Shown here: positions 308 through 60,035 of the stretch, one piece after another | Layout of the letters: every line of letters starts with the position of its first letter | Numbering within the stretch: the stretch's first letter is position 1 | Assembly: GCA_043815185.1 (NCBI GenBank) | Contig: JBDRJF010000024.1 | Coordinates: 128,533-192,532, forward strand | DNA: 64,000 nucleotides | Source: Candidatus Omnitrophota bacterium | GTDB taxonomy: Bacteria; Omnitrophota; Gorgyraeia; Duberdicusellales; 4484-171 | Reading direction: 5' to 3' | Notes under the pieces: generated by a model | Databases searched by the model: none | The model's input: only the letters and a program-made list of their open reading frames with translations | What the model was told of the DNA's origin: nothing | Program-made: the position numbers and the translations under genes

Positions 308-1852
308 TTAAGAAGGATGTAATTTACCGCGAAAGAGAGTGAGTTCTAAAAATGTTTGGAGGCGGCGTGACCGGCTAGGCCGCCTTAATTTCTTCAGGGC
401 TTTTGCCTCAATTTGCCTTATCCGCTCGCGAGTAACCTTAAAAATAGTTCCTACTTCCTCGAGGGTCTTAGGACTGCCATCTCCGAGCCCAAATCTTAAA
501 GTAAGAATATTTCTCTCCCGTTCGGTCAAACTGTCCATTGCCTGATCTAATTCCTCCTTAAGCATTGAGAAAACAGTTGCATTAGCCGGCGATACTGCTT
601 TTTTGTCCTCAATGAAATCGCCGAAGGAAGTGTCTCCATCATCGCCAATCGGCGTATGTATAGATATCGGTTGCTGTGATACCTTAATAATATCTTTTAT
701 CTTAGAAACCGGAAGCCTTAACTCTTTTGCTAACTCATCAGGAGTAGGTTCCTTTCCTTTCTCCTGGATAAAAAGCCGCGAGATTCGAATTATTTTGTTA
801 ATTGTCTCGGTCATATGCACAGGAATTCTAATCGTCCGGGCCTGATCAGCAATGGCCCGAGTTATTGCCTGCCTTATCCACCAAGTAGCATAAGTAGAAA
901 ATTTATATCCTCGTTTGTACTCAAACTTCTCTACCGCTTTAATCAGCCCGATATTTCCCTCTTGAATTAAATCCAGGAAAGAAAGACCTCGGTTTACGTA
1001 TTTCTTAGCTATACTTACTACTAATCGTAAATTCGCTTCGACAAGAGTACTCTTGGCGTGATTGTAAAGCATGTTCTTATCTAAGATGGCCCGCATTTTA
1101 TCTCTTACTTCTTCCTTGCCAAATCCAAGTTGTCTTAGGCATTTATTTTTTTGCCGTATTGAGCTGCGTTTCTCAATAAGCTTACTCTTACTCTGCCCCT
1201 TTATCTTATCGATCTTTCTCTTTAACCGTTCCGTTTCACGGACAACTTCTTTAGTTTTAAAAATTATCTTTTCTATTATCCCAATGGTAAAGTTAAAGCT
1301 CTTAAGGACTTCTTTCTGGCTTTCGACTCTTTTAACCCTGGCTAATTTACTGTAGAGTTCTCGTATCCTTTTGACTTCTTTTTCCTTACTCTCAATCTCT
1401 CCCTTAACAAAATCATCAGGATTAAGCTGATCTTTAAGTAACTGTTTAGAGATATCGATAAATGTATTTCGCGATATGCCGGTAGAGAAAACTTCGTCAC
1501 GTAAAACCTCTTCGGCATCTTCAATTCTCTTTGCTAATCTTATTTCTTCGTCTCGTGAAAGCAAAGGAATTTGCCCCATCTGCTTAAGATACATCTTAAC
1601 CGGATCATCTACCGGCTGGGAAGCAGGGGTAACTTGTTTTTTCTTTTCCTTCTCCCACTCAGCGACTTCTTTTGTTTCTAACACACTTATATCTTTACTA
1701 TCTAGATGTTCAAAAATCGTATCTAAGGCCTTGACGTTTATTATTTCCTCCGAAAGAAAATGGTTTATCTCATCGTAAGTAAGATAACCCTTCTTTTTAC
1801 CCAGATCGATTAACTGTTTAATACTTCGCTCTAAAAGTTTTTTCTTAACCAT
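308..1852 (-). CDS. rpoD: RNA polymerase primary sigma factor (sigma-70 family)
   Basis: 514 aa. Region 2 reads [24 protein letters not shown]; region 4 reads [28 protein letters not shown]. Confidence 0.95.
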
Positions 1853-3704: not shown

Positions 3705-4667
3705 TTAGCTTTTTTTTCGTTTAAATCTTCGAAATCCTGCGAACTCGTAGATTGTAAGTTTTTCTTTGCTCTCCAAATAATCGAGCATGATATTAATACC
3801 TAAGCTATCGGAAGCAATATGCGAAGCGAATATTACATTTATTTTAGACTCTTTACACTTTTTAAAATGCTCCTCAGACTGATGCATCGCAATTATAGTA
3901 TCAACCCCACAAGAGGCAAGCTCTTTGTAGATGTCTTTCGGCCCTTCTGTTCCTCCGGTAAATTCAAGATGAATATTTTTGCAGCGGGAATTCTTATGTC
4001 CGACTACTATCTGAGGAGGATTGTTGTTTTTAGCAGCATCAATATACTCAGGAATAGTTTGTAAGATATCCATTACATTACCCAAATTTAAAGGTTTACT
4101 CTTATCCATAGTCTTTCGTAGATATTGATAAGCAAGATTATCACAAGGAGTATGCATACAGAGAAAGTTTATATTGAGCAAACGTGCTATATCAACGCTT
4201 CGGGAATGGTTGGCTGAACTAACTCTTCGGGCAACCTGAAACTTCCTTTCCTCCAAAAGCTTCTCACAAACACTCAGGGCTACACCCTCTTTAGTGAAAA
4301 CATCGATTTGTAAATCCATCACCTCATAAAAGTTAGCGTAGGCTCTCCCTTGAGGGTGATGTGAAACCACTAAGTCTATCTTTTTCCCTTTTTCTTTTAA
4401 TCTATCTACGAGAACCAACTCGCTCCCATCAACATCTATTCCCACAATCAGCGATTTTATGTTGCTTCCAAGGGCACCGCAGAGAATACGGGTGTCGGAA
4501 AAGGGGTTAAATAATGAATCCGAGTCGAAGAGATCTCTCCCTTTCTTGTCTGCTTTCTCTAACCTTTGTTGGTTTTTTTCAAGAAGTGCTCCTATTTCTT
4601 TACGGCTGCGGATATCAGCCTCAATCCCTTTCTTTACTACTTCTTGATAGAAATTTTTTAACTTCAT
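3705..4667 (-). CDS. NIF3-like (GTP cyclohydrolase 1 type 2 homolog) metal-binding protein
   Basis: 320 aa with a DLVVSHHPQG motif and C-terminal histidines typical of the NIF3/YbgI fold. Family assignment is from memory only. Confidence 0.5.
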   Translation of the reverse strand: MKLKNFYQEVVKKGIEADIRSRKEIGALLEKNQQRLEKADKKGRDLFDSDSLFNPFSDTRILCGALGSNIKSLIVGIDVDGSELVLVDRLKEKGKKIDLVVSHHPQGRAYANFYEVMDLQIDVFTKEGVALSVCEKLLEERKFQVARRVSSANHSRSVDIARLLNINFLCMHTPCDNLAYQYLRKTMDKSKPLNLGNVMDILQTIPEYIDAAKNNNPPQIVVGHKNSRCKNIHLEFTGGTEGPKDIYKELASCGVDTIIAMHQSEEHFKKCKESKINVIFASHIASDSLGINIMLDYLESKEKLTIYEFAGFRRFKRKKS

Positions 4668-5238
4668 AATATTCTTCTACCTCCTTATTTAATATAATTT
4701 CGGGGTTGAATTTATTATACACTTTAAAAGCTGTTAAGTAAATTCTAGGCCCAACATTTTTAAAAAGATTACAAGCTATACTCTGACAAAAATACTTTAA
4801 ATCAAGAGGAGATAGATACAATAAAAAAATGATTACACTCACAAGAAGCGAAGCCCTAAAAGCTCCAATAATAAATAATAACGCCCTTCCACTAAGGTGT
4901 TTATCTCCTTTTTTGGAAAAAGATGTTACTATTAATCTCAAAATAGCAAAAATCAATGTTATCCCGAAAAAAATCAAAAGAAAGGAGATAAAAAGGAAAT
5001 ATTCCCGGTTCAGAAGTGGTACATTAGCACTTATGGTATCGGATAAAGAAGAATAATACTGAAAAGCAAAAAAAGATCCTAAGAAAAAACCCAGAACTTT
5101 AAAACTTTCCTGTAAAATCCCTCGTGAGACTGAAATGTAAATAACTCTTAAACAAAGGATTAAAAAGAATAAATCTATTGCAACTTGACTAAAACTTTCA
5201 CCCATTGGTTTAAATACCACCCCGGTTAAAGGTTTCAC
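4621..5238 (-). CDS. CvpA-family membrane protein
   Basis: 205 aa with 4-5 hydrophobic helices and a CvpA-like N-terminus (IDLFFLILCLRVIYISVSRGILQE). Confidence 0.55.
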   Translation of the reverse strand: MKPLTGVVFKPMGESFSQVAIDLFFLILCLRVIYISVSRGILQESFKVLGFFLGSFFAFQYYSSLSDTISANVPLLNREYFLFISFLLIFFGITLIFAILRLIVTSFSKKGDKHLSGRALLFIIGAFRASLLVSVIIFLLYLSPLDLKYFCQSIACNLFKNVGPRIYLTAFKVYNKFNPEIILNKEVEEYYEVKKFLSRSSKERD

Positions 5239-8983: not shown

Positions 8984-9058
8984 ATATAAAGGCTCGAGGA
9001 TAAAATTAAAAGTTGTTTTTATTCTTTGCCGCTTTTTTAATCTTTATCCTTGATATTT

Positions 9059-9336
9059 GCGAGGGTGGCGGAAACAGCTCTTGCGCAGCAAGACAATTGG
9101 TTATCAATAAAACAATTAGCTGTTCCCGCAATAGCTAAAAAGCTACAATAAAACTTTATCTAAGGCAGTAAGCTAAGCATAATAAATAAACTTTAATGCG
9201 AGGGTGGCGGAAACAGCTCTTGCGCAGCAAGATAGTTGCTTATTAATAAGGCGGCTAGTTGTTCCCGCAATGACTAACAGACTAAATTAAGACTTTATAG
9301 AAGATAACGAACTAAGTATAATACACAGACGTTAAT
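9059..9336 (+). repeat. Two tandem upstream modules (138 and 140 nt), each starting with the first 15 nt of tRNA-Leu(GAG)
   Basis: gcgagggtggcggaa occurs at 9059, at 9197 and as the tRNA 5' end at 9337. Both units continue aacagctcttgcgcagcaag...ag(c/t)tgttcccgcaat. Confidence 0.85.
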
Positions 9337-9420: not shown

Positions 9421-9564
9421 TAGTTTTATTTAATTAGAAAGTGACGGCGGACAAAAAAAGTCTGTGCTTTCGCATAAAATATCTTGGATCCAATAATAGC
9501 GGTTGAGGCTTAGCCTAAACCGGCTCGCCTTCGGCGAGATTGGATACAAGTCCTCTTCCTCGAA
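9421..9564 (+). repeat. tRNA-trailing structured module D1 (ends in a diverged copy of the tRNA-Leu 3' end)
   Basis: The 3' portion reads ggatccaat..cggttgaggcttagcctaaaccg..ctcgccttcggcgag..attggatac followed by caagtcctcttcctcgaa (3 mismatches to the tRNA 3' end), then CCA. Confidence 0.7.
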
Positions 9565-11525: not shown

Positions 11526-12283
11526 AGGGGACGGTTCTCGTTGCCCTATCCTTTACCCGCACAATAAGTTGTAAACACACCATTATAAATATCTAATTTA
11601 TTTGAAAGAAAAAGCCTTCTTTATACGTCTATTATAGAAAAGAGGAGGTTTTTATGCCACGCCAAGCCAGAGAAATTCCATCAGCAGGGTATCTACATAT
11701 AATAAGCCGAGGAAATAATAAAAGGAAGATCTTCCGCTACGAAAGGGATAAAAAGCAGTATTATCTCTATCTTAAAAATTTGAAGCAGCAAGAGAAGATT
11801 AATATTTGCCATTACTGCCTTATGGGTAATCACGTACATCTTCTTGTAGAGGTAAGGCAGGAAAGTAACCTATCCAGGTTTATGAAACGGATCAACCTTA
11901 AATATGTCTATTACTACCAAAGAAAATACACCTATTGTGGCCATCTCTGGCAGGATAGATTCCAATCAAAGATAATCAATAATGAGCCTTATCTGATACA
12001 ATGCGGTAAATACATAGAACTAAATCCTGTACGGGCCGGCATTGTTTCCTCTCCGGAAAATTACCCTTTCTCAAGCTATCACTACTATGGCGTTGGTCAA
12101 AAAGATTCACTTATTACCCCAAACCCTTTATATGAAGGCTTAAGTAAACAACAGGAAAAGAGACAGCATATATATAGAAATCTAATAATTGAGAAAGAAA
12201 ATGAGACAGAAGAAACAAAAAAATAATTGTCTGTTCATAACTAACTGGTGTATAATAAGTAAGGGGTGAGAGAACCGTCCCCT
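11526..12283. mobile_element. RAYT/IS200-like unit 1 bounded by 14-bp inverted repeats
   Basis: aggggacggttctc at 11526-11539 and its reverse complement gagaaccgtcccct at 12270-12283 flank the Y1 transposase gene. Confidence 0.6.
11654..12226 (+). CDS. IS200/IS605-family HUH Y1 transposase, REP-associated (RAYT)-like
   Basis: 190 aa. HUH motif GNHVHLLVEV; Tyr-motif region GKYIELNPVRAGIV; WQDRFQSKII. Confidence 0.75.
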   Translation: MPRQAREIPSAGYLHIISRGNNKRKIFRYERDKKQYYLYLKNLKQQEKINICHYCLMGNHVHLLVEVRQESNLSRFMKRINLKYVYYYQRKYTYCGHLWQDRFQSKIINNEPYLIQCGKYIELNPVRAGIVSSPENYPFSSYHYYGVGQKDSLITPNPLYEGLSKQQEKRQHIYRNLIIEKENETEETKK

Positions 12284-15405: not shown

Positions 15406-15628
15406 AATACTCTACCATAAGTTAAACAAAAAACCAATAAAAAACCCCACCTTTCATCCGTTACAGGCAATTGCTATCAATCCCTCGCTAGACAAGTGGG
15501 CACCGCATCATTACCGACCAAACGATAAGAGATATTGGCTCCCTATTAAGGGTGTTGGTTGTAGCACTCTTACCTGCTGACGCAATAGGCAGGGTTTATT
15601 TTCCCCTTGTTGTCTTCAGGTTAAACTT

Positions 15629-22333: not shown

Positions 22334-22479
22334 TTTTTACCTCCAGTAGTCTTTCATCCCATCTTTGCTTGCTCTTCTTGCGAAAACTTATTTTGCATAT
22401 TAATAACGATAATGGATGCAATGCGGCTTTTCCAGCCGCTCCGCCTGCGGCGGAGATTGTATACAGCTTAGTCTCCTTT

Positions 22480-24988: not shown

Positions 24989-25065
24989 TGGTGGGCGATA
25001 CAGGAGTCGAACCTGTGACCTTCTGAATGTAAGTCAGACGCGCTAACCAGCTGCGCCAATCGCCC
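24989..25065 (-). tRNA. tRNA-Val (anticodon TAC), CCA encoded
   Basis: Reverse complement folds as gggcgat tg gcgc agctggtta gcgc g tctga ctTACat tcaga aggtc acagg ttcgact cctgt atcgccc a cca. Confidence 0.92.
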
Positions 25066-35054: not shown

Positions 35055-35091
35055 AGCAGATTATTTTAGTTTAACAATGGGGGAAAATTGA
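35055..35091. repeat. 37-bp direct repeat, copy 1 (pyrK promoter region)
   Basis: agcagattattttagtttaacaatgggggaaaattga is identical to 35946-35982. Confidence 0.95.
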
Positions 35092-35098
35092 ATCTTCA

Positions 35099-35941
35099 CA
35101 GACGTCCTATTTGCACCCCATTGTAGGCATCCTACAAAGGTACATCCTACTGGTGATCAATCCAGGCTATTATATCTTAAAATCCTTATCTATAATATCT
35201 TCATACATTCTTGGCATCAAAACATATTGTCTGTAAAATTTTCTACATTCCTCAACATTGCTAAATGTTCGATATAAAGGATTCGGTGTAAGTGAGGTGT
35301 TTTGTCGTCCATAGGCATAGAAAGCATAACTTGACCATTTGTAATCTTTTAAAGCTTTAACAAGTTTTGCTCTTAAAGGATTTGTCTCTATGTACCGCGC
35401 GCACTCTAAGAGATATTCGTTTTTTGCTATGATTTTGCTCTTATATCTTCCTTGATAAAGATGGCCTGTGTATTGGTATTTTTGTTTGAAATAAAAACGA
35501 TAAGATTGGAATATCCCTTGTGTAAGCTTTGCCAATTCTTCTTTTTTGAATACTTTCATTAAAAGATGGACGTGGTTATCCATAAGGCAATAATTGTATA
35601 GCTCAAAGGAGTATTTGTCTTTATACTTCTTTATTAGCGCTATAAACCTCTGATAATCCTCAATTACCTTCAATAGCCGCTGGCCATTGTTTCCTTTTTG
35701 TATAATATGGTAGATTGCACCATCGTATATCTGTCTTTTCACCGTAGACATAACTCTCGCCTCCTTCTTTTCTAGGGTGCACCTTTGTAGGCGTCCTACT
35801 TTACCCCTAAAATAGGACGTCTGTTATGCTTCCTTATATAATAGACGTTAGAGGAAGCTGATTTCTTTCAATTATTTTAAGTTTTTTGGTAGGGGTGTCC
35901 CTTTGTAGGACGCCTACTTTACCCCTAAAATAGGACGTCTG
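35099..35941. mobile_element. RAYT/IS200-like unit 2 bounded by about 50-bp imperfect inverted ends with REP-like hairpins
   Basis: The left end is cagacgtcctattt..gtaggcatcctac. The right end is gtaggacgcctac..aaataggacgtctg, with a second right-end-like copy at about 35776-35823. Confidence 0.7.
35170..35751 (-). CDS. IS200/IS605-family HUH Y1 transposase, REP-associated (RAYT)-like
   Basis: 193 aa with HUH motif DNHVHLLMKV, LYQGRYKSKII and ARYIETNPLRAKLV. It is a paralog of 11654..12226. Confidence 0.75.
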   Translation of the reverse strand: MSTVKRQIYDGAIYHIIQKGNNGQRLLKVIEDYQRFIALIKKYKDKYSFELYNYCLMDNHVHLLMKVFKKEELAKLTQGIFQSYRFYFKQKYQYTGHLYQGRYKSKIIAKNEYLLECARYIETNPLRAKLVKALKDYKWSSYAFYAYGRQNTSLTPNPLYRTFSNVEECRKFYRQYVLMPRMYEDIIDKDFKI

Positions 35942-35945
35942 CATC

Positions 35946-35982
35946 AGCAGATTATTTTAGTTTAACAATGGGGGAAAATTGA
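35946..35982. repeat. 37-bp direct repeat, copy 2
   Basis: Identical to 35055-35091. Confidence 0.95.
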
Positions 35983-40328: not shown

Positions 40329-40782
40329 CTTTAACTTTACCTTTAATATAATTGATTGCTTCCTTAGCCGTCTTTACCTTTTTGATCCCCTTTATATCCC
40401 AGGTGTCTATCCCCACAATCGGCTTCTCCTCATTAAAGCCAAAAGCAATTTCAGACAAAGTCCCGTATTCACCGCTGATAGCAATTATGGCCTTAGCGGC
40501 TCTGACCACTAAAATATTTCGAGCATAGCCTAAACCAGTGGGTATCGTTACATCCAGGTACTTATTAGCATCCTCACCGTCAGAGCTGGGTAGAATTCCT
40601 ACGGTTAAACCGCCTTGGCTCCTCGCTCCCCGGCAAGCTGCTTCCATTACTCCTTCTCTGCCGCCGCAAATTAAGGCCCAGCCGGCTTTAGCGATAAGTT
40701 CACCTACTTCATAAGCTATTTTGTAAGCTCTTCTTGAAGCTTTATGGCCGCCAACTACAGCAACATTTATTTTCCTCATCAC
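40321..40782 (-). CDS. TIGR00725/LOG-like Rossmann-fold protein
   Basis: 153 aa with the GGREGVMEAACRGA motif. Confidence 0.62.
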   Translation of the reverse strand: MMRKINVAVVGGHKASRRAYKIAYEVGELIAKAGWALICGGREGVMEAACRGARSQGGLTVGILPSSDGEDANKYLDVTIPTGLGYARNILVVRAAKAIIAISGEYGTLSEIAFGFNEEKPIVGIDTWDIKGIKKVKTAKEAINYIKGKVKDA

Positions 40783-40801
40783 TTAGCTTATATTAGATAA
40801 A

Positions 40802-40939
40802 TGCCCCCGGCAGGAATCGTATGCAATCTGCCCCAGGCAGTTGAATTCGAAGAATTCACCCTATTGCATCCGATGGCCGCCATCACAATAAGTAAAAACC
40901 TTACCCAGCCACAGGCACCTATCGATTACTAAAAAACCG
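40802..40939 (-). repeat. tRNA-trailing structured module D5 (ends in a copy of the tRNA-Arg 3' end)
   Basis: The minus strand reads ggatgcaat..tgaattc-ttc-gaattca..ctgcc-tgg-ggcag..attgcatac cgattcctgccgggggca. Fifteen nt are identical to the tRNA, followed by 1 mismatch. Confidence 0.7.
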
Positions 40940-41011
40940 TGTCCCCGGCAGGAATCGAACCTGCATTTTTGGCTCCGGAGGCCAACGCTCTATCCGTTGA
41001 GCTACGGGGAC
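40940..41011 (-). tRNA. tRNA-Arg (anticodon CCG), no encoded CCA
   Basis: Reverse complement folds as gtccccg ta gctc aacggata gagc g ttggc ctCCGga gccaa aaat gcagg ttcgatt cctgc cggggac a. Confidence 0.9.
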
Positions 41012-41035
41012 GTTTTTGAAAAAGCCAGCTAAAAA

Positions 41036-41533
41036 CTATTTAATTAAAACTGTTTTTAAAAGTGATTTAAAACACCATTCTAAATAAACATTATCCCCGG
41101 TCTTTGATCCCGATAGATTCCGGGAAAAAACAGCTCTTGCCTTTTTCTGGCTTAAGACATTTTCTAACTCGCTTAAAGCTTTTTTACTCCCAGTCCCAGA
41201 GCCAAAGGTTAAAAAGCAGGCGGCTGTTTTATTATCAAGGCCACTCACTTTACTTAGGTAGCTCCGCAGAGCCGGGGCATAAGTAAAAGCCCAGACCGGG
41301 GAAGCAAAGATAACAAAGTCATACTCACCTAAATCATAGTTAACCTCTAGTAATTGGGGTTTCTTCCTAAATGCAGCATCGAGACATTGTTTAAGGAAAA
41401 GAACTGTTTCTTTCTCAAGTTTTAAATCAATTAAATCTAAAGAATTGCCTAAGGCACCTATTGCTTCTTTTAAAAATAAACAAGCTCTTCTAGTATTGCC
41501 GGTGAATGAATAAAAAACTACTGCGCCCTTCAT
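41036..41533 (-). CDS. Flavodoxin-family protein
   Basis: 165 aa with N-terminal MKGAVVFYSFTGNTRR. Confidence 0.6.
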   Translation of the reverse strand: MKGAVVFYSFTGNTRRACLFLKEAIGALGNSLDLIDLKLEKETVLFLKQCLDAAFRKKPQLLEVNYDLGEYDFVIFASPVWAFTYAPALRSYLSKVSGLDNKTAACFLTFGSGTGSKKALSELENVLSQKKARAVFSRNLSGSKTGDNVYLEWCFKSLLKTVLIK

Positions 41534-48871: not shown

Positions 48872-49020
48872 CGACCCCAGCCGGATTTGTATGCCCTCTC
48901 CGACGAAGTCGGAGCCGGTTGAGGCTAAGCCTCAACCGCATATGCATACAAAATAAGACATTGGCTTTTGTCGCTACCCCTGAGTTTTAGCTGGATACTG
49001 AGCTTTAGCATTAAATAATA
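48872..49020 (-). repeat. tRNA-trailing structured module D4 (ends in a copy of the tRNA-Glu 3' end)
   Basis: The minus strand reads tgtatgc..cggttgaggcttagcctcaaccg..ctccgac-ttc-gtcggag..gcataca followed by caaatccggctggggtcg (18 nt identical to the tRNA). Confidence 0.72.
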
Positions 49021-49123: not shown

Positions 49124-49151
49124 GTTAATTTGTCAACCAAACTTTCTTTTT

Positions 49152-51596
49152 TTAGTCTTCGGGGATGCTGCGGGCGATAGTAGAAAGTTTGTCGGCTTTC
49201 TCTAGGTTTATTACCTTCACCCCTTGGGTGGAGCGGCCGGAAACTCGGATGTCCTGAACTTTGGTCCGGATAAGGATTCCCTTTTGTGTAATACAGATTA
49301 CTTCATCGTCAGGCCTAACCAGAACTAACGCCCTAACCCGTCCTATTTTAGAAGAGAGCTTTATATTAATTACTCCCTTACCCCCTCGGGATTGTAAACG
49401 ATACTCTTGAATCGGGGTTCTTTTGGCAAAACCGTTTTCGGTAGCTGTAAGAAGGTAGAAATCTTCTTTTTTCAAGGATCTTTTAATTAAAACCATTCCT
49501 AAGGTGATATCTTTCTTGGCTAACCTCACTCCCCGGACACCCTGGGATTGTCGTCCGGTCGGTCTTATATCACTGCTCTTAAATTTTATCGCAAGGCCTT
49601 CTTGAGTTGCTAAAATCACCTCTTCTTCTCCGTCGCAGACTCCGGCCCCAACCAGATTATCGTCTTTCCCGAGAGTTATGGCAAATATTCCGCTTTTACG
49701 TATATTGGAAAATAGCCCCAAAGAAGTCCGCTTGACCATACCCTTCTGAGTCGCCATAAAGATAAACTTCTCAGAGTCAAAATTTTGGACTGCTAAAACT
49801 GTGGTGATTTTTTCCTTCCCGGAAAGACTTAAGAGATTAACCATTGCTCTCCCCTTAGAGATTCGTGAGCCAGTAGGAACCTCATAGGTCTTGAGAGGAT
49901 AAATCTTGCCTTGATTGGTAAAAAACAAAAGAGTCTCTTTGCTGGAAGCAACAAAAAGATGCTCAACAAAATCAGCATCAGCAGTAGCCATAGCAGCAAC
50001 TCCCCGGCCTCCCCTTTTTTGTTGTCGATAAGTAGTCAGGGGCATTCGCTTGACGTAGCCGGAACCGGTTATACTGATAACCATGTCCTCCTCTACAATT
50101 AAATCCTCAATCTCTATCTCTTCTTTCTGGGCTACAATCTCAGTGCGCCGCGGGTCAGCAAACTTTTCCCGTATCTCTTGTAACTCCTCTTTAATTAAAA
50201 CCTCCTGTCGCTTCTGGGAAGACAGTATCGACTTTAAGTATTCTATTCTCTTCAACAGCTCTAAATACTCTTGCTCTATCTTTTCCCGCTCCAGGGCACA
50301 TAGCCTCTGCAATTGCATCTCTAAGATTGCCTGAGCCTGAATCTCGGTAAGCTTAAATTTCTTCATCAGCGCTAGCTTAGCATCCTGAGGGTTTTTAGAC
50401 TTTTTAATTGTCTCAACCACCTTATCTAGAAACTTCAGGGCAATCTTTAGCCCTTCTAAAATGTGGGCCCTTCGTTCGGCCTTATCCAGCTCAAACCGGG
50501 TTCTTCGGACAATTACCTCTTTGCGAAAATTAATATGGTGGAAAAGCATCTCCTTTAAACCGAGAATTTGGGGTTTGCGATTTACCAGGCACAAAAAGAT
50601 AGCCCCAAAAGTTGTCTCCATACTAGTATGCTTATAGAGCCGATTTAGAACTATCTCGGCTTGGGTATCGCGCTTAAGCTCGATTACGATCCTTATCCCT
50701 TCTTTGCCTGACTCATCACGAAGATCAGATATCCCCTCTACTCTTTTGCTGGTAATAAGCTGGGCTATCTGCTCCATTAAGGTAGTCTTATTAAGCTGAT
50801 AAGGAATCTCGGTAATCACAATCTGATCCTTGTTCCTTTCCCGTTCAACAGTTGCTTTAGCTCTAACCGTGAGCTTACCCCGGCCTTCCTTGTACATGTC
50901 AAGAATACCACTTCGCCCACAGATTGCACCGCCGGTAGGAAAGTCTGGCCCCCGAACATACTTATGAAGATCTTTTACCGAAGCTTTGGGTTGATCGATT
51001 AAATAGATTAAAGCATCGCAAATTTCCCCCAAGTTGTGTGGTGGTATATTAGTAGCCATACCAACAGCAATCCCGCTTGCGCCGTTAAGCAGCATGTTGG
51101 GTAATACCGAAGGAAGAACCTCTGGTTCAGTGAGAGAGTTATCAAAATTAGGGAAAAATTTAACTGTATCCTTGTCAATGTCTTGTAAGATATAGTCGGT
51201 TATCCGAAACATCCGAGCCTCGGAATAACGCATAGCAGCCGGTGGGTCTCCATCAATAGAACCAAAATTACCTTGGCCATTTATTAAAGGATAGCGCAAA
51301 GAAAAATCCTGAGCCATTCTCACTAAAGCATCGTATACGGCTATATCCCCGTGGGGGTGGTATTTACCTAAAGTCTCACCTACGATTCGAGCACACTTCT
51401 TGTGGGCCTGATTGTAGCGCAGGTGTAACTCATGCATAGCGTAAAGGATCCTTCGCTGTACCGGTTTCAAACCGTCTCTGATGTCCGGAAGAGCCCTGCC
51501 GACAATTACACTCATAGCGTAAGAGAGGTAGGATTCTTTCATCTCCTCTTCTAAATATTTACTGATGATTTTTTCTTTAAAACCTTCGGCCATCAT
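49152..51596 (-). CDS. gyrA: DNA gyrase subunit A
   Basis: 814 aa with [16 protein letters not shown], the active-site region [10 protein letters not shown] and C-terminal beta-pinwheel repeats. Confidence 0.97.
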
Positions 51597-51614
51597 CTGT
51601 TGTTTAATACCCCC

Positions 51615-54244
<2,630 letters not shown>

Positions 54245-54250
54245 AAAGAA

Positions 54251-55348
54251 TTATGGTTTCATGGGAAGGATTAAGTAAATATATCTTTCTTTTCTTAACA
54301 CCGCAGGTTTATCAGCCCCAAAAAAATCAATACAAACCTCTTCGTCTTCAAGGTTTTTTAAGGCATCGATTAAATAGTTCGGGTTAAACCCAATTTCTAG
54401 ATGCCCGCCGCTATAGGTGGCAGCCACTACTTCTTTCACTTCACCTAATTGAGGGGTGTTTTTGTAAATAGTTAGGTTGTCTTTTTTCAGCTCTAATTTC
54501 ACCCCTTGATAATCGCTGGTTGAGAGTAGATTCGCCCTTTTAAAGGCAAAAAGCAGCTTTTCCCGATCAACTCTTAATTTATCTTTTCCTTCTTTAGGGA
54601 TATATTGAGAGTAGTTAGGGAACTCCCCCTCTATTGGCCGGGCAATAAAATAAGTGTTTTTAAAATCAAAACTAACCCGGTTCTCCTCCACGGATAAATA
54701 CACTTCCTCTTTGGTTTCTTTTATTAGTTTATGTAGCTCACTTACTGCTTTCGCAGGAAGAATAAAGCATATTTTCGAGGTTAGTTCGGGTTGTTTGGGG
54801 GGTAGTTTCCGCCAAACAAAAGATAACCTCTTCCCGTCAGTGGAAATTAATTTTATTTTATTCTCCTCTATCTCAAAAAGGATACCCCCTAAAACATAAT
54901 TACTATCCTCGTGGCCCACACAAAAAGCAGTCAACTTAATCATCTCCCCTAATTCTTGAGGGTCTAATTTGATAAGAGATACACCTCCCTTCTCCTGAAT
55001 CTGGGGGAATTCTTCGGGGTTTAAAACCCCTAGTTTAAACTCAATATTTTCACACTTTACTAAAAGGTTGTTTTTGGTTTTTTCGATGGTAATTTCTTGG
55101 GGGGGTAGTTCGCGAATAATTGAAAGAATTTTTTTCATTGGGATAGCTATCTGCCCGGTTTCTAATACCTTATTGGGTTGCAGAGATATTATAGATACAT
55201 CTAAATCTGTAGTGGTGAACTTTAAGTTATCTTTTGTAGCAGTTATTAAAACACTGCTTAATAAAGGAAAGTTCTGTTTGGTTGTAGAAGGGCCTAATAC
55301 TTTTAATAGGTTTTCTACTAATATATCTTTATTAATAATAAATAACAT
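54251..55348 (-). CDS. dnaN: DNA polymerase III beta sliding clamp
   Basis: 365 aa with three-domain clamp length, C-terminus ..YLILPMKP, adjacent to dnaA. Confidence 0.9.
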   Translation of the reverse strand: MLFIINKDILVENLLKVLGPSTTKQNFPLLSSVLITATKDNLKFTTTDLDVSIISLQPNKVLETGQIAIPMKKILSIIRELPPQEITIEKTKNNLLVKCENIEFKLGVLNPEEFPQIQEKGGVSLIKLDPQELGEMIKLTAFCVGHEDSNYVLGGILFEIEENKIKLISTDGKRLSFVWRKLPPKQPELTSKICFILPAKAVSELHKLIKETKEEVYLSVEENRVSFDFKNTYFIARPIEGEFPNYSQYIPKEGKDKLRVDREKLLFAFKRANLLSTSDYQGVKLELKKDNLTIYKNTPQLGEVKEVVAATYSGGHLEIGFNPNYLIDALKNLEDEEVCIDFFGADKPAVLRKERYIYLILPMKP

Positions 55349-55442
55349 AGTAGTATTAGTAGTAAGCGTTGTGAGTTTTGTTAAGAAGTGAATATTCTAC
55401 CAGAACCAAAGCTAAAAATAAATGTTTTATTCACAAACCTCT
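55349..55442. promoter_or_regulatory. dnaA-dnaN spacer with DnaA-box-like 9-mers
   Basis: TTATTCACA at 55427-55435, plus weaker inverted matches agtgaatat (55387-55395) and tgtgagttt. Confidence 0.4.
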
Positions 55443-56777
55443 TTACAAACTCTTGATTTCTTGTGTAAGGCTGTCAATAGTGAGTTTTATTTTTTTATTC
55501 TTTTCACACTCTCTCTTTATTTTTTTACAAGAATAAAGAATTGTGGTGTGGTGTTTAGCCCCAAAAAAACTCCCAATTTCCGGCAGGGACAGCTCAGTTA
55601 ACTCTCGCACTAAGTACATCCCAACTTGCCGGGGGAGCACTAAAGTTTTGTTTCGCTTCTTGTTTTTCAGGTCTTCCCTACTCACCCCGAAATAATTCCC
55701 TACTTTAAGCAAAATAGTGTCAGGGGTCACCCGCTTGTAGATTTCCTTAACCATATCTTTTAAAATTTCTTTAGCCAGCTCCAAACTTATTGGTTTATTT
55801 TCAATTAAAGAGTAAGCGATAATTCTTACTAAAGCCCCCTCCAGTTCCCGTATATTAGTGGTGATATTTTCGGCAATAAAATGAATGACATCCGAGTCGA
55901 TTTTTATTGGGTCTTTCTCTAATTTTTTCTGCAAAATAGCCACCCGGGTTTCAAAGTCAGGTAGTTGGATATCCACTACCAACCCCCAATTAAACCGGGA
56001 GATTAATCTTTCTTCCAATTTACTAATCTCTTTTGGTGGTTTATCAGACGAAACAATGATTTGCTTGTGGTGGTCATACAAGACATTAAAGGTGTGGAAA
56101 AACTCTTCCTGGGCAGCTTCTTTCCCAGCCAGAAACTGTATATCATCAATCAAAATAACGTCAATATCCCTATATTTTTGACGGAATTTTTCAGTTGAAC
56201 GGTTACGGATAGAAAAAATAAGTTCATTGGTGAATTTTTCTGAAGAAATATATTTTGCTTTTAGCGACGGCCCTCTGGCGAGAATCTGATGGGCAATTGC
56301 CTGCATAAGATGTGTTTTTCCTAACCCTACTCCCCCATAAATAAACAGGGGGTTATATGCTTTACCCGGGGCATTGGTTACAGCCAGAGAAGCAGCGTGA
56401 GCCATCCGGTTTGAGGCCCCCATAATAAAATTATCAAAAGTAAAGCGCGGGTTTAGGCGCAGAGAATCTTGAGGTTCCTCGCGGAAACTCTGCTGGATTG
56501 TCTTAAAAATTTTAGTAGTCTTTTTTTTAAGCAGGTTGGGATTTACATCAAAGATCACTTCAAAATCCTTTTGAGCTAGCTCGCTTAAAACCTGTTTTAT
56601 TTGAGGAAGATAGCGGCTTTCCACCCAGTTTTTAAAAAAATTATCCGGGGCTTCCAGAGTTAAAGAGGTTTGGTCGATTATTTTTAAGTTAAGCGGTGCA
56701 ATCCAGGTGTCGAACGAGGTTTCACCCAGAATACTCTTGAGTTTCTCTTTACAGGTTTGCCAAATTTGTTCCGTCAT
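55443..56777 (-). CDS. dnaA: Chromosomal replication initiator protein DnaA
   Basis: 444 aa with Walker A GGVGLGKTHL, the sensor region, and domain IV ending GAKHHTTILYSCKKI. Confidence 0.97.
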   Translation of the reverse strand: MTEQIWQTCKEKLKSILGETSFDTWIAPLNLKIIDQTSLTLEAPDNFFKNWVESRYLPQIKQVLSELAQKDFEVIFDVNPNLLKKKTTKIFKTIQQSFREEPQDSLRLNPRFTFDNFIMGASNRMAHAASLAVTNAPGKAYNPLFIYGGVGLGKTHLMQAIAHQILARGPSLKAKYISSEKFTNELIFSIRNRSTEKFRQKYRDIDVILIDDIQFLAGKEAAQEEFFHTFNVLYDHHKQIIVSSDKPPKEISKLEERLISRFNWGLVVDIQLPDFETRVAILQKKLEKDPIKIDSDVIHFIAENITTNIRELEGALVRIIAYSLIENKPISLELAKEILKDMVKEIYKRVTPDTILLKVGNYFGVSREDLKNKKRNKTLVLPRQVGMYLVRELTELSLPEIGSFFGAKHHTTILYSCKKIKRECEKNKKIKLTIDSLTQEIKSL

Positions 56778-56785
56778 TTTAGTGA

Positions 56786-56814
56786 AGATTCACAAAATTC
56801 ACAACTTATTCACA
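56786..56814. promoter_or_regulatory. Three direct DnaA-box-like 9-mers in the dnaA/rpmH divergent spacer
   Basis: agATTCACA (56786-56794), aaATTCACA (56795-56803) and TTATTCACA (56806-56814), compared with the TTATCCACA consensus. Confidence 0.55.
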
Positions 56815-56875
56815 CCCAACAAGCGAGGCGGAAATAATTATACCGCAATAAATTTTCTTTGCAACATTTTTATGG

Positions 56876-56903
56876 TTGACACAAGGAAAAGATATGTTAA
56901 AAT
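56876..56903 (+). promoter_or_regulatory. rpmH promoter (TTGACA, 16 nt spacer, TGtTAAAAT)
   Basis: ttgaca caaggaaaagatatgt taaaat. The -10 element ends 7 nt before the rpmH ATG. Confidence 0.55.
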
Positions 56904-56910
56904 TTCATCT

Positions 56911-57048
56911 ATGAAAAAGAATATCAAAACACCCACCAAACTAAAAGGGAAAAAAAAGAAAGGATTCCGGGCCCGGATGGCAAGTGCTGGCGGCAAGAAA
57001 GTCATAAAGCGCAGAAGGAAAAAAGGCCGGAAAAAGCTCAGTTTATGA
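56911..57048 (+). CDS. rpmH: 50S ribosomal protein L34
   Basis: 45 aa reading MKKNIKTPTKLKGKKKKGFRARMASAGGKKVIKRRRKKGRKKLSL, the inner ATG of ORF 56707..57048. Confidence 0.9.
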   Translation: MKKNIKTPTKLKGKKKKGFRARMASAGGKKVIKRRRKKGRKKLSL

Positions 57049-57251
57049 GAAAGGTAGTGCTCTTTTTTTTAAGGCTTTATCGTTCAGTGTCCGGGGTATT
57101 TCCCGGCCGTTGTATCTACTTTCCTACCTGTTCCCAATATTCTCAACAAGCTTTTTTACACTACCCTTTTTTTAAAGCTTTGAAACTTAGCTTAATTCGC
57201 CTCCTCCGCTGCAACCCTTTTGCCAAGGGGGGGATTGACCTTTTAAAATAA
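57045..57251 (+). CDS. yidD: Membrane protein insertion efficiency factor YidD
   Basis: 68 aa with CIYFPTCSQYSQQA..RCNPFAKGGIDLL. Its ATG overlaps the rpmH stop (ATGA). Confidence 0.85.
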   Translation: MRKVVLFFLRLYRSVSGVFPGRCIYFPTCSQYSQQAFLHYPFFKALKLSLIRLLRCNPFAKGGIDLLK

Positions 57252-58705
57252 TGATGGAAAAGCGGTTTTTCTTAGCTTTTGTTGTAACTTTAGTTTTTTT
57301 TGTAATCTATTCCCAGCTGGTTGCACGATTCATGCCGCAACCAGTTCCTCTACAAGGAGATAGAAAAGAATATTCCCGGGAAGACCAAGGCTCGCTACAG
57401 CCTGGACAAATTTCTTCCCAGCCTTCCCCTTTAATCATAGAAGAACCAGCTGAATCGATTGATTTCCCTCAAGCAGTCATAGGTAATTTTGTTATAACAT
57501 ACTCTCCTTTAGGTGGTTACATAAAAAGTATCGCTATCGGTGATCAAGCCAGTGAACTTCCTTTTCAGAATATTGGTTTTTTGCCTCAAGACCAGGGTAA
57601 ACAATTCACTGCCAATATCAGCGATAAAGGAATTGAATTTATTGGGCCGGGTGACCAGCGCAAAGCATTTGTCTTTGAGGGCTATAGCTTAGGAATAACT
57701 CTTAATCCTCCACCAGTTGAACCGCTAGTTCTGTTCTCGAACTCTTTACACCCCAATATGTTAGACCAAAGATATCAGGAAATTTTTTATTCTCGGGGGC
57801 AAGTCATAAAAAGAAGCTCAGCACAAAAAATGAAAGATAATACTTATAGCAGTGTTGAATTCGCCGGAGCCCGGGATCGCTATTATTGTTTTTCATTACT
57901 CAAAGGGAACTATAAATTCAAGTGGTTAAAAGACAAGGAAAAAGGGCACTTGTATCTCTTTTCTCCGCCGGAGCAAATTTTAGTTTATGTTGGGCCTCAA
58001 CTTAACAAAGAGCTAAAACCATTTGGGCTAGAGGGGGTTATCTACTATGGTTTCTTCCATGCCATTGGTGTGGGGATGATAAAACTTCTCTACTTTTTTT
58101 ACTTTCTGACCAAAAATTGGGGTTTAAGCATTGTTTTCTTCTCCGTCTCAGTTTCTTTGCTCCTCTTCCCCTTTACATCTAAGAGTACTGTAGCTATGCG
58201 GAAAATGCAGCAGATTCAGCCGGAAGTCGAAGCCATAAAAGCCAAGTACAAGGATAATCCTCAGAAGTTACAAAAAGAAACCATTGAATTATATCGAAAA
58301 TACAAGATAAATCCTTTGGGCGGGTGTTTGCCGTTGTTATTTCAGCTTCCGGTAATTATGGCTTTTTACCAGATTATTTTTCGTTTTGTAGAGTTAAGAG
58401 GCGCTCATTTCTTATGGATTAAAGATCTTTCTCAGCCGGATCGCTTTTGCAAACTCCCCTTCCCTGGCCCCTTAGGTTACTTGAATCTCCTCCCGATTTT
58501 TTTAGTGGCTATAGGGCTTGTGCAGCAAAAAATTACTACCTCCTCCTCCGCTGCTCCGTCGCAACAGAAATCAATGGGGCTGTTTTTTACAGTATTTATC
58601 GGAGTTATTTTTTACACCTTCCCTTCAGCCCTAACCCTGTATTGGCTTATCCAGAATTTATTTACCTTGTCTCATCAAGCCCATCTAGCCCGAAACAAGA
58701 CCTAA
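57251..58705 (+). CDS. yidC: Membrane protein insertase YidC
   Basis: 484 aa with an N-terminal TM helix, a periplasmic domain and the conserved core MRKMQQIQPEVEAIKAKYKDNPQKLQKETIELYRKYKINPLGGCLP. Confidence 0.92.
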   Translation: MMEKRFFLAFVVTLVFFVIYSQLVARFMPQPVPLQGDRKEYSREDQGSLQPGQISSQPSPLIIEEPAESIDFPQAVIGNFVITYSPLGGYIKSIAIGDQASELPFQNIGFLPQDQGKQFTANISDKGIEFIGPGDQRKAFVFEGYSLGITLNPPPVEPLVLFSNSLHPNMLDQRYQEIFYSRGQVIKRSSAQKMKDNTYSSVEFAGARDRYYCFSLLKGNYKFKWLKDKEKGHLYLFSPPEQILVYVGPQLNKELKPFGLEGVIYYGFFHAIGVGMIKLLYFFYFLTKNWGLSIVFFSVSVSLLLFPFTSKSTVAMRKMQQIQPEVEAIKAKYKDNPQKLQKETIELYRKYKINPLGGCLPLLFQLPVIMAFYQIIFRFVELRGAHFLWIKDLSQPDRFCKLPFPGPLGYLNLLPIFLVAIGLVQQKITTSSSAAPSQQKSMGLFFTVFIGVIFYTFPSALTLYWLIQNLFTLSHQAHLARNKT

Positions 58706-58711
58706 ATACAG

Positions 58712-59184
58712 GTTTCCACGTGAAAACGGACAGGTTTCCACGTGAAAACGGACAGATTTTCACGTGAAAACGGAGAGGTTTCCACGTGAAAACACTTAAG
58801 TGGAAACATTCACTATAGCAACACAAAGAGTCCACAAGTCCAATTCTCAAAACGCAAAACAAGCCAGGCTTAACTAACCAAAATTAGGTAATTTTTTTGG
58901 TTATTTTCACGTGAAAACACAAAGAACTTGACAATCGCTCTTTTTTTTATTACAATTAGGTAAAGCTTCAGCCTTTGGCGCATAAACTAGTAGAATATTG
59001 CGAATCTAGTTGCTGGAGTAAATCACTAGCTGATATTAAAACAGGTGTGGAAACATTAATTTTGTCAATTGCTCTGAGGGTAAAGCGGTTTTCACGTGTC
59101 TCTCCCCTGAGAATAAAAGTACTGGGGAGATCCATGTGGAAACCTCTATCATTCCATAAGAGCACGAGGTTTTCACGTGAAAAC
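58712..59184. promoter_or_regulatory. Array of six 16-bp parS-like palindromes plus four half sites
   Basis: RTTTYCACGTGAAAAC occurs at 58712, 58734, 58756, 58778 (exact 22-bp spacing), 58903 and 59169; the last is the perfect palindrome GTTTTCACGTGAAAAC. Half sites lie at 58800, 59047, 59088 and 59136. Confidence 0.6.
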
Positions 59185-59206
59185 GCAAGAGCATTAATAA
59201 ACTAAA

Positions 59207-60019
59207 ATGGGCAAAATAATCGGCATTTGTAATCAAAAAGGTGGTACTGGCAAGACGACCACAGCGATTAATTTAAGCTCGTTTTTAGGCCTGGGGAATA
59301 AAAAAACTTTACTTATTGACATGGATCCTCAAGGTAATGCTACTTCCGGAGTAGGATTTGACAGCCAAGGAAAAAACTCTATTTACGATGTAATTATGGA
59401 CAAAGCTCTTTTGTCCGAAAGCATTTATCCTACTAAATGGCCGCAATTACAGCTTATCCCTTCAGACATTTCCCTTACCGGCGGAGAAGTTGAATTAGTC
59501 AATACCGAGAATAGAGAATTGCGGTTAAGTCAAAGGTTGGAGGAGATCAAGAATGATTTTTCCTACATTATTATTGATGCGCCGCCTTCTTTAGGCCTGC
59601 TTACGGTAAATGTCTTAGCCGCTTCGGATAGTTTGGTTATTCCGGTACAATGCGAATACTATGCTTTAGAGGGAGTTTCCAAATTAATCAATACTGTAGA
59701 GCTAATTCGTGAAAGATTAAATCCTTCATTAGAGATTGAAGGGGTTCTTCTCACCATGGCTGATTTTCGTACCCGGCTTACTTTGCAGGTGATAGAGGAG
59801 GTGCGAAGGTTTTTTCAGCAAAAAACACTTGATGTTATTGTACCTCGGAATATAAAACTTGCTGAGGCTCCTAGTTTTGGTAAGCCGATCTTTTTTTACG
59901 ATCCGGCTTGCGTGGGTGCTAAAGCCTACTTAAATTTAGCTCAAAAAATATTAAAGGAGAATATAGAACTTAACCAATTAGCAAGTCCGGTTGACAGAGC
60001 ACCTTCTCTCACCGGATAA
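59207..60019 (+). CDS. parA: Chromosome partitioning ATPase ParA/Soj
   Basis: 270 aa with the deviant Walker A NQKGGTGKTT. Confidence 0.92.
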   Translation: MGKIIGICNQKGGTGKTTTAINLSSFLGLGNKKTLLIDMDPQGNATSGVGFDSQGKNSIYDVIMDKALLSESIYPTKWPQLQLIPSDISLTGGEVELVNTENRELRLSQRLEEIKNDFSYIIIDAPPSLGLLTVNVLAASDSLVIPVQCEYYALEGVSKLINTVELIRERLNPSLEIEGVLLTMADFRTRLTLQVIEEVRRFFQQKTLDVIVPRNIKLAEAPSFGKPIFFYDPACVGAKAYLNLAQKILKENIELNQLASPVDRAPSLTG

Positions 60020-60035
60020 AGATAAGGAGTTAACA

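Follow-up and report, generated by a model that had tools for sequence, protein, structure and literature searches.

What lies between the 3' end of a tRNA-Arg(CCG) gene and a second copy of that end, about 138 nt away? The question is raised by a 64,000-nt stretch of DNA from a Candidatus Omnitrophota bacterium (contig JBDRJF010000024.1, positions 128,533 to 192,532), here called the window, in which a first-pass annotation made from the letters alone had described a folded module trailing the tRNA on the minus strand. We conclude that the 138 nt 3' of tRNA-Arg are a small, tightly folding piece of inserted DNA, and a member of an undescribed family of Omnitrophota. On balance, we read the family as non-autonomous, hairpin-ended insertion elements that pick tRNA ends by short base pairing and preserve the tRNA by duplicating its end. 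Coordinates refer to the window unless a locus number (such as L023) precedes them.

The unit behind tRNA-Arg(CCG)

Read on the minus strand, the locus has the following parts.

40940-41011 (one boundary 40939), minus strand: tRNA-Arg(CCG), intact, no encoded CCA (ARAGORN; Rfam tRNA model, 72.9 bits)
40940-40957, minus strand: proximal direct repeat, tRNA positions 56-73, CGATTCCTGCCGGGGACA
40875-40939, minus strand: spacer of the inserted unit, about 64 nt
40929-40939, minus strand: T-run within the spacer
40904-40919, minus strand: tail-complementary stretch ("anti-tail", GGTGCCTGTGGCTGGG) within the spacer
40872-40884, minus strand: small hairpin of the spacer
40816-40874, minus strand: three-way-junction fold, 59 nt (covariance models R2 and R1, z-score of the DNA fold and covariation, all given below)
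40871-40874 with 40816-40819, minus strand: outer helix, ATCG with CGAT
40870 with 40820, minus strand: G.A mismatch
40863-40869 with 40821-40827, minus strand: inner helix, ATGCAAT with ATTGCAT
40842-40858, minus strand: hairpin 2, TGAATTC-TTC-GAATTCA
40828-40840, minus strand: hairpin 3, CTGCC-TGG-GGCAG
40802-40819, minus strand: distal direct repeat ("tail"), CGATTCCTGCCGGGGGCA, 18 nt

The closing helix, both hairpins and the junction GATTGCATAC named by the first-pass annotation were all located on this strand, and its distance of 138 nt from the tRNA end to the end of the copy was measured as 137-138 nt. The closing helix comprises 12 bp in all, namely 4 bp, the G.A mismatch and 7 bp, and its outer 4 bp are built with the first four bases of the tRNA-derived tail. 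The duplicated 3' end belongs to tRNA-Arg(CCG). Comparison of the tail with tRNA positions 56-73 gave 17 matches out of 18, in agreement with the earlier description of 15 identical nucleotides and one mismatch: the first 15 nt are exact (positions 56-70, 40943-40957), followed by the mismatch (G for A) and then CA. Within 200 nt, the expected number of exact 15-mer repeats of the tRNA is only about 1e-5, so chance does not explain the tail copy. The module has a folding energy of -17.5 kcal/mol as single-stranded DNA (z = -6.1), a value that none of 200 shuffled sequences matched.

Copies of the same fold in the window and beyond

Two covariance models were used to assess membership of the Arg copy in a family. 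A MAFFT alignment (A1) of the other four tRNA-trailing copies of the window was structurally poor; hence model R2 was built from exactly these four copies with the structure supplied by hand, and model R1 from a 13-copy alignment with the Arg copy left out. R2 scored the Arg copy at 41.5 bits (E = 8.3e-9), its top match outside the training set, and R1 at 37.0 bits. The first-pass annotation had made membership depend on a score against a model of the other four, and on this measure the Arg copy belongs to the family. The remaining copies in the window are as follows.

9483-9564, plus strand: copy after tRNA-Leu(GAG), tail with 3 mismatches to the tRNA
22410-22468, plus strand: sixth window copy, no adjoining tRNA (R1 39.3 bits, R2 28.3 bits)
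48872-48953, minus strand: copy after tRNA-Glu(UUC), tail an exact 18-nt copy
63520-63597, plus strand: copy after tRNA-Leu(UAA)
63776-63847, plus strand: copy after tRNA-Val(GAC)

The copy at 22410-22468 sits between rpmI and rplT, antisense to both; these gene names were assigned from the sizes and translations of the open reading frames (ORFs) and from the usual thrS-infC-rpmI-rplT order, with no database match. Its right flank resembles a decayed rplT ribosome-binding site and start codon. Over the Arg module, Rfam 15 returned nothing at gathering score or in a permissive search (to E = 10), with the tRNA alone matching, and no description of this tRNA-trailing family was found in the literature.

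About 45 copies were collected in total, from the window, four metagenome-assembled genomes (MAGs) and 21 metagenome contigs, and the best matches of the neighbouring proteins are to Candidatus Omnitrophota. The metagenomes were scanned with a pattern combining the closing helix and the T-loop, which returned 22 loci, 21 of them genuine copies; an Arg-specific pattern gave zero matches there, as did a hairpin-2 pattern in viral contigs. Near-identical copies occur at many unrelated loci, and in the four MAGs the full fold is found both after tRNAs and between protein genes.

All 27 complete tabulated tRNA-adjacent units, together with the window Leu-GAG copy and the unit of L023, are co-oriented with the tRNA, lie 55-75 nt downstream and end in positions 56-73 of their own tRNA; every metagenome copy with enough flank likewise lies 55-75 nt 3' of a tRNA and ends in its positions 56-73. 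At least 17 different tRNAs precede family copies (Met, Leu-UAA, Leu-GAG, Ser-GCU, Trp, Lys-CUU, Val-GAC, Val-UAC, Ala-GGC, Phe, Pro-UGG, Pro-GGG, Tyr, Arg-CCG, Glu, Asp and Arg-UCU). Co-orientation, spacing and an own-tRNA tail in all tabulated units bear out the earlier proposal that the association with tRNAs is mechanistic rather than due to chance. The accompanying statement that orientation always follows the tRNA is correct for the 3' copies, but the fold is also found at sites other than tRNAs and, in inverted orientation, at tRNA 5' ends. Those 5' units that lie in the window are listed below.

9058-9139 and 9197-9278, listed on the plus strand: two inverted units in tandem upstream of tRNA-Leu(GAG), spaced by 139 nt
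63234-63310, listed on the plus strand: inverted unit upstream of tRNA-Leu(UAA)

In each of these, a copy of tRNA positions -1 to 14-16 comes first and the three-way fold after it. On the minus strand their layout is that of the 3' module, with 4 bp, a mismatch, 7 bp and two hairpins, and in that orientation R2 matched them weakly (E = 0.03 and 0.23). They look like elements of this kind that were inserted at the D-arm in the opposite orientation. In L002, a 116-amino-acid ORF resembling a LAGLIDADG homing endonuclease (4377-4727, plus strand) lies between tRNA-Cys and tRNA-Leu(UAA), where the window has an inverted 5' unit.

Encoded CCA was also compared between tRNAs with and without a unit. 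In a sample drawn from all loci, hand-corrected and biased, the unit is carried by 0 of 5 CCA-encoding tRNAs and by roughly half of the CCA-less ones. tRNA-Val(UAC) and tRNA-Cys (24989-25065, minus strand, and 63129-63205, plus strand) are the sole complete tRNAs of the window that encode CCA and the sole ones lacking a trailing module. If the replication origin is placed near 57 kb, four window copies fall on the lagging-strand template and two on the leading-strand template, a split that is uninformative because the orientation of the tRNA dictates the strand.

Filled and empty sites at the tRNA-Arg locus

The locus was traced through relatives by its gene order (flavodoxin / tRNA-Arg / TIGR00725). 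This synteny comparison, which had been suggested together with the covariance model, found the same locus filled in close relatives and empty in three slightly more distant ones. Since orthologous sites are found in both states, the Arg unit is an insertion. The states observed are given below with the identity of the neighbouring protein to that of the window.

L021 and L022, 92% identity: unit as in the window, tail 18/18
L023, 82% identity: unit, then a 0.95-kb island (229-amino-acid ORF), then a third partial copy (CCTGtCGGGGACA), then the flank of the empty sites
L024, L025 and L027, 78% identity: empty, the tRNA followed directly by TATACAAAAAAA..ATG
L026, 77% identity: island alone, with a 13-nt repeat on its flanks
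L028, 73% identity: other cargo behind the same left end

In L021 and L023 the Arg tail is identical to the tRNA at 18 of 18 positions. The island at the tRNA-Arg 3' end occupies 1895-2847 of L023 and 1514-2471 of L026, and its terminal hairpin pairs a few bases into the following tRNA-end copy, which in L023 is the third copy. Its 229-amino-acid ORF has a signal-peptide-like N-terminus; the cargo of L028 comprises ORFs of 166 and 542 amino acids, and neither the island ORF nor the L028 cargo gave a Pfam match. A second pair of filled and empty sites was found on comparing L023 with L024, where a non-tRNA copy is inserted in a T-run, with CTTCTTTTTT at its left flank and CATCTTTTTT at its right.

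The duplicated tRNA end and the spacer

At tRNA sites the direct repeat always starts at C56, and its length ranges from 18 to 88 nt: 18-20 nt in most copies, 25 nt in L036, 45 nt (perfect) in L048, about 75 nt in L050 and about 88 nt in L049, where the duplication takes in the entire native spacer together with the 5' strand of the outer helix. At non-tRNA sites the repeats measure 3-10 nt. In L040, CCA follows the distal copy and not the proximal one, which identifies the former as the original end of the tRNA.

Where flank was duplicated along with the tail, the tail matches at 18/18 positions and the flank at 76-82% (P about 0.007 and 0.03); between the window and L023 the identity is 64% for the spacer, 89% for the fold and 94% for the tail. 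The tail is thus kept more strictly than the flank, and must be either constrained or homogenised against the tRNA. About 40% of the spacers, that of the Arg unit included, contain a stretch complementary to T-stem and acceptor bases of the tail. Cognate spacers pair with their tails better than non-cognate ones (Wilcoxon p about 0.03). For the Arg unit, the duplex of anti-tail and tail reaches -17.7 kcal/mol, compared with an average of -10.3 for non-cognate tails (z = -3.2), none of which surpasses it, and the minimum-energy fold of the unit pairs the two stretches. In L049 and L050 the tail-complementary stretch is native flank that was co-duplicated. L046 carries two units in tandem after tRNA-Lys(CUU) (780-1045, minus strand), the first with a variant closing helix (GGAACCAAT with ATTGATTTC).

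Pairing between the element and its target

Whichever tRNA is adjacent, the 5' strand of the outer helix is complementary to T-loop bases of that tRNA, and the pairing covaries from copy to copy (CTTG/CAAG, CTCG/CGAG, GTTG/CAAC, ATTTG/CAAAT, TTCG/CGAA and ATCG/CGAT). Compensatory changes were also found between orthologous copies: behind tRNA-Leu(UAA) the window has CTCG/CGAG and L002 has CTTG/CAAG, and behind tRNA-Val(GAC) the window has CTTG/CAAG and L002 has TTTG/CAAA. In three copies (window Leu-UAA, L002 Val-GAC and the non-tRNA copy of L023), the first four bases of the tail follow the internal tetranucleotide and not the target, indicating that the pairing is kept for its own sake. Since the outermost 4-5 bp join a tetranucleotide of the element to the start of the distal repeat, target choice looks base-pair-guided, and different for each tRNA.

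Conservation of the fold

Covariation was analysed in 46 copies aligned to R1, and thus in an alignment fitted to that model. Paired bases fill 97.5% of the helix cells, compared with only 25-41% in slid controls; changes on both sides were seen in 24 of 28 pairs, and 0 of 500 shuffles reached the observed values. These changes compensate one another and leave Watson-Crick pairs on either strand. Hairpins 2 and 3 are wholly different between copies yet perfect. The closing helix keeps its sequence (GGATNCAAT with ATTGNATAC), and the G.A mismatch is kept in 41 of the 42 copies read on their own strand.

A functional RNA can normally accommodate wobble pairs, and hairpin sites that act as single-stranded DNA keep complementarity equally on both strands, together with one strand-marking mismatch. 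Among the 1054 cells of the alignment, G-T occupies 7 and A-C 10. That G-T is no commoner than A-C, in combination with the strand-marking mismatch, points to a fold that works as single-stranded DNA and not as RNA, a reading that draws on the pattern of substitutions. UUCG tetraloops were considered as evidence for RNA and set aside, as the loops are of 3 nt, T-rich and C-G closed, and decide for neither molecule.

A model for insertion and its alternatives

On the reading that we favour, the unit consists of a variable left arm and a conserved 55-70-nt three-way-junction fold with a fixed G.A mismatch in its 12-bp closing helix, and would land in the segment of a tRNA gene that runs from the T-loop to the 3' end. 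The direct repeat, extending from C56 to the tRNA end or beyond, would keep an intact tRNA gene, and in the outermost 4-5 bp the tetranucleotide of the element would pair with the first bases of the distal repeat. Acting as single-stranded DNA, the fold may be recognised through its helix and mismatch by an enzyme supplied in trans, which would join the end of the element beside a single-stranded target paired to the guide tetranucleotide. A repeat of variable length could then result if copying set out from the point of breakage before the second joint was made. The most plausible enzymes would be hairpin-recognising Y1/HUH transposases of the IS200/RAYT kind. Two candidates are present in the window.

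11654-12226, plus strand: IS200-like Y1 transposase gene, RAYT type (Y1_Tnp match)
35170-35751, minus strand: IS200-like Y1 transposase gene, RAYT type (Y1_Tnp match)

For this fold they are candidates only. In L014 (2600-3382) and L020 (3727-4509), a Y1_Tnp-like gene is flanked by inverted copies of the palindrome GCGGTTGAGGCTWAGCCTCAACCG, which forms hairpin 2 in three window copies and in many modules. The palindrome was found in only four MAGs, three of them labelled Planctomycetia and one Omnitrophota. By its position it is the repeat of the Y1_Tnp-like gene, and it has colonised one arm of many folds. It also stands alone at many intergenic sites, in the manner of REPs. The second Y1 transposase unit of the window lies between the two copies of an exact 37-nt direct repeat (35055-35091 and 35946-35982, minus strand), of which the proximal one belongs to the promoter region of the following gene; this is another long-repeat insertion in the same genome.

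Several observations weigh against this model. The units are flanked by long repeats, whereas classical IS200/IS605 elements make no target duplication. The Y1 genes of the window are flanked by inverted palindromes of their own, which are different ones (AGGGGACGGTTCTC and GTAGGCGTCCTAC), and no transposase or recombinase is linked to the fold or its closing helix. Circles or other excised forms were not seen, in an analysis that had no means of looking for them. A role as RNA, or one for the host, could instead explain why the tail is so strictly conserved and why about 40% of spacers contain a stretch complementary to it. The copies were gathered by sequence patterns, so that the tRNA-linked share is biased, and covariation was counted in an alignment that had been fitted to its model. 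A bolder form of the model, which we put forward as tentative and doubtful, holds that the units represent a new class of programmable mobile DNA: gene-less elements whose short address pairs with single-stranded loops of folded tRNA genes, is rewritten for each tRNA, and whose re-copying of the tRNA end lets essential genes survive. The address would be the guide tetranucleotide, in some copies together with a 12-nt tail-complementary stretch, directed at the T-loop in one orientation and at the D-arm in the other.

It is unlikely, in our view, that the unit is instead a functional RNA made together with the tRNA, in which spacer, fold and tail mimic the acceptor/T-stem helix with the three-way junction in place of the T-loop. 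Such a transcript could be a substrate of RNase P, RNase Z or the CCA-adding enzyme, or else a decoy, a terminator or a processing signal for CCA-less tRNAs. The constant orientation and position 55-75 nt downstream, a tail conserved beyond its flank, the restriction of window units to tRNAs without encoded CCA, and T-runs after both tRNA and tail would all be expected of it. So would the better pairing of cognate spacers with their own tails (p about 0.03; z = -3.2 for Arg) and the change on both sides of one Arg anti-tail/tail pair, C-G in the window and U-A in L023. Yet the anti-tail is absent or insignificant in about 60% of units and in L049 and L050 is co-duplicated native flank, and the helices lack wobble tolerance (G-T in 7 cells, A-C in 10). 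The unit is missing from otherwise syntenic relatives, lies antisense between protein genes and stands inverted upstream of tRNAs. A terminator-like site is also lacking on the module strand: a scan of 40600-41200 for a G+C-rich hairpin followed by a T-run found no intrinsic terminator on the minus strand. A mimic of tRNA-Ala would, judging from the L040 sequence, lose the G3:U70 pair at position 3.

Somewhat less likely again is a tyrosine recombinase acting in trans on a small circle, with the tRNA 3' end as attachment site, the fold as a structured site of the integron attC or phage CTX type and the tail as attR. Duplication of a tRNA 3' end as a direct repeat that begins in the T-loop is the textbook signature of insertion by an integrase (PMC9897764; Williams 2002 and Reiter 1989, as cited there, for tRNA 3'-end repeats of this type), units and the ORF-carrying island accrete in tandem at the same tRNA-Arg end, and the distal copy in L040 is the original tRNA end. 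Against this, an integrase is encoded neither in the unit, which has about 120 nt and no ORF, nor in the island, the cargo ORFs have no Pfam match, and none stood out among those ORFs of the window that were scanned, which were only some of them. One lineage would need matching attachment sites for at least 17 tRNAs, and repeats of 45-88 nt with non-conserved flank, like the 3-10-nt repeats at non-tRNA sites, fit a fixed core poorly.

An origin without any dedicated enzyme, by two template switches at 4-5-nt microhomologies of which the second returns to the T-loop and re-copies the stretch between, appears improbable. It would account for a repeat whose start is fixed at the microhomology and whose length varies, for the perfect palindromic helices, for the hairpin-2 loop being found in both orientations (TTA and TAA), and for the 5' strand of the outer helix in L049, which is native flank and was not brought by the element. 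However, the closing helix keeps its sequence and its G.A mismatch from genome to genome, pointing to recognition by a protein, and near-identical copies are found at many unrelated loci. That the unit is a decayed tandem tRNA copy or a chance repeat is hardly credible. The tail does come from the tRNA, and there is a resemblance between the anti-tail GTGCCTGTGGCT and the 5' end of the tRNA (GTCCCCGTAGCT), but D arm and anticodon arm are lacking, and neither ARAGORN nor the Rfam tRNA model reported a tRNA or tRNA pseudogene in 40802-40938. The same non-tRNA fold follows at least 17 tRNAs and chance repeats are expected at about 1e-5; the evidence from the family has already refuted this explanation.

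Four further candidates were rejected. Small ribozymes (hammerhead, hatchet and twister) do not fit, as the junction strands have no conserved core and there was no Rfam match. In a homing guide RNA of TnpB/Cas12 type or of a CRISPR-transposon, the tail would be the guide, but the scaffold is far too small for this, the target-adjacent motif would have to differ for each tRNA, and no such genes are nearby. A retroviral-type primer-binding site on the opposite strand would call for complementarity to CCA, and nothing of the kind is present. A split or permuted tRNA is incompatible with the full tRNA intact upstream.

Relation to known systems

In IS608, a tetranucleotide beside the hairpin foot base-pairs with the junction sequence, so that the site is read by DNA-DNA pairing. 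The present family may resemble this: a tetranucleotide at the hairpin foot pairs with the junction sequence, and the pairing covaries. IS200/IS605 and the REP/REPIN (RAYT) elements are also alike in their small size, possible non-autonomy and imperfect hairpins with a fixed irregularity. A further likeness to REP/RAYT is given by the Y1_Tnp genes of the window and by the hairpin of many copies that equals the palindrome flanking the Y1_Tnp-like gene of L014 and L020. A cognate Y1 gene flanked by the same full hairpin was not found among the loci examined, where only the hairpin-2 palindrome flanks such a gene. Unlike these systems, which make no target duplication and are not known to target tRNAs, this family has repeats of 18-88 nt at tRNAs; its fold is a three-way junction and not a simple hairpin, and its guide pairing prolongs the helix without a break. 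GTAG or CGTC tags are found on REPs (PMC3733652), and the fold has neither.

Integron attC is a structured site with an outer helix spanning the junction and a strand-marking irregularity, and it supports one-way tandem cassette arrays at a fixed site. The family shares these traits with it, and also an imperfect palindrome at the 3' end of the unit, a variable centre with conserved outer arms, and units with or without an ORF. It differs in its arms, GGATNCAAT and ATTGNATAC in place of RYYYAAC/GTTRRRY, in an outer pairing that is target-specific and not a shared consensus, and in much longer repeats. Neither an IntI integrase nor an attI platform turned up in the material analysed, which was less than the whole genome.

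tRNA fragments left by integrated elements are common (PMC9897764). Elements integrating at tRNA 3' ends are similar to the family in the start of the repeat at the T-loop, restoration of the tRNA, tandem accretion and variable presence (PMC9897764), but the present unit is of about 120 nt, has no integrase, uses one fold with matching tail and guide for at least 17 tRNAs, and has repeats of 3-88 nt. Casposons integrate at the 3' end of a tRNA gene, require the T-loop region and produce a 15-bp target duplication (PMC5137440). The tRNA 3'-end site, the T-loop region and an unusually long duplication are shared; casposons, however, are large, have terminal inverted repeats, encode Cas1 and a polymerase and make a duplication of fixed length, none of which holds here. 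A classical miniature inverted-repeat transposable element has terminal inverted repeats at both ends and a fixed duplication, whereas here the inverted repeat is internal and at one end only, and the repeat length varies. The family has features in common with each of these systems and fails a defining test of each.

If the units are mobile and addressed by base pairing, they would be a very small and naturally re-addressable addition to the few nucleic-acid-guided mobile elements; as mobile DNA, they would explain the tRNA fragments behind most tRNA genes of the little-studied phylum Omnitrophota. If they are tRNA-like RNAs instead, they would be a new kind of tRNA-linked transcript. The units are a source of annotation errors, in the form of partial tRNA copies, apparent "terminators" and spurious small-RNA calls, and are useful as markers of recent genome change in Omnitrophota.

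Other features of the window

The region from about 49150 to 60900 contains gyrA, gyrB, dnaN, dnaA, yidC, parA and parB, named by eye from ORF translations. Gene orientation switches near 56.8-57.2 kb, so that the replication origin probably lies inside the window. A 6S RNA was detected at 15440-15598 on the minus strand, with a score of 49.5 bits, just over the Rfam gathering score.

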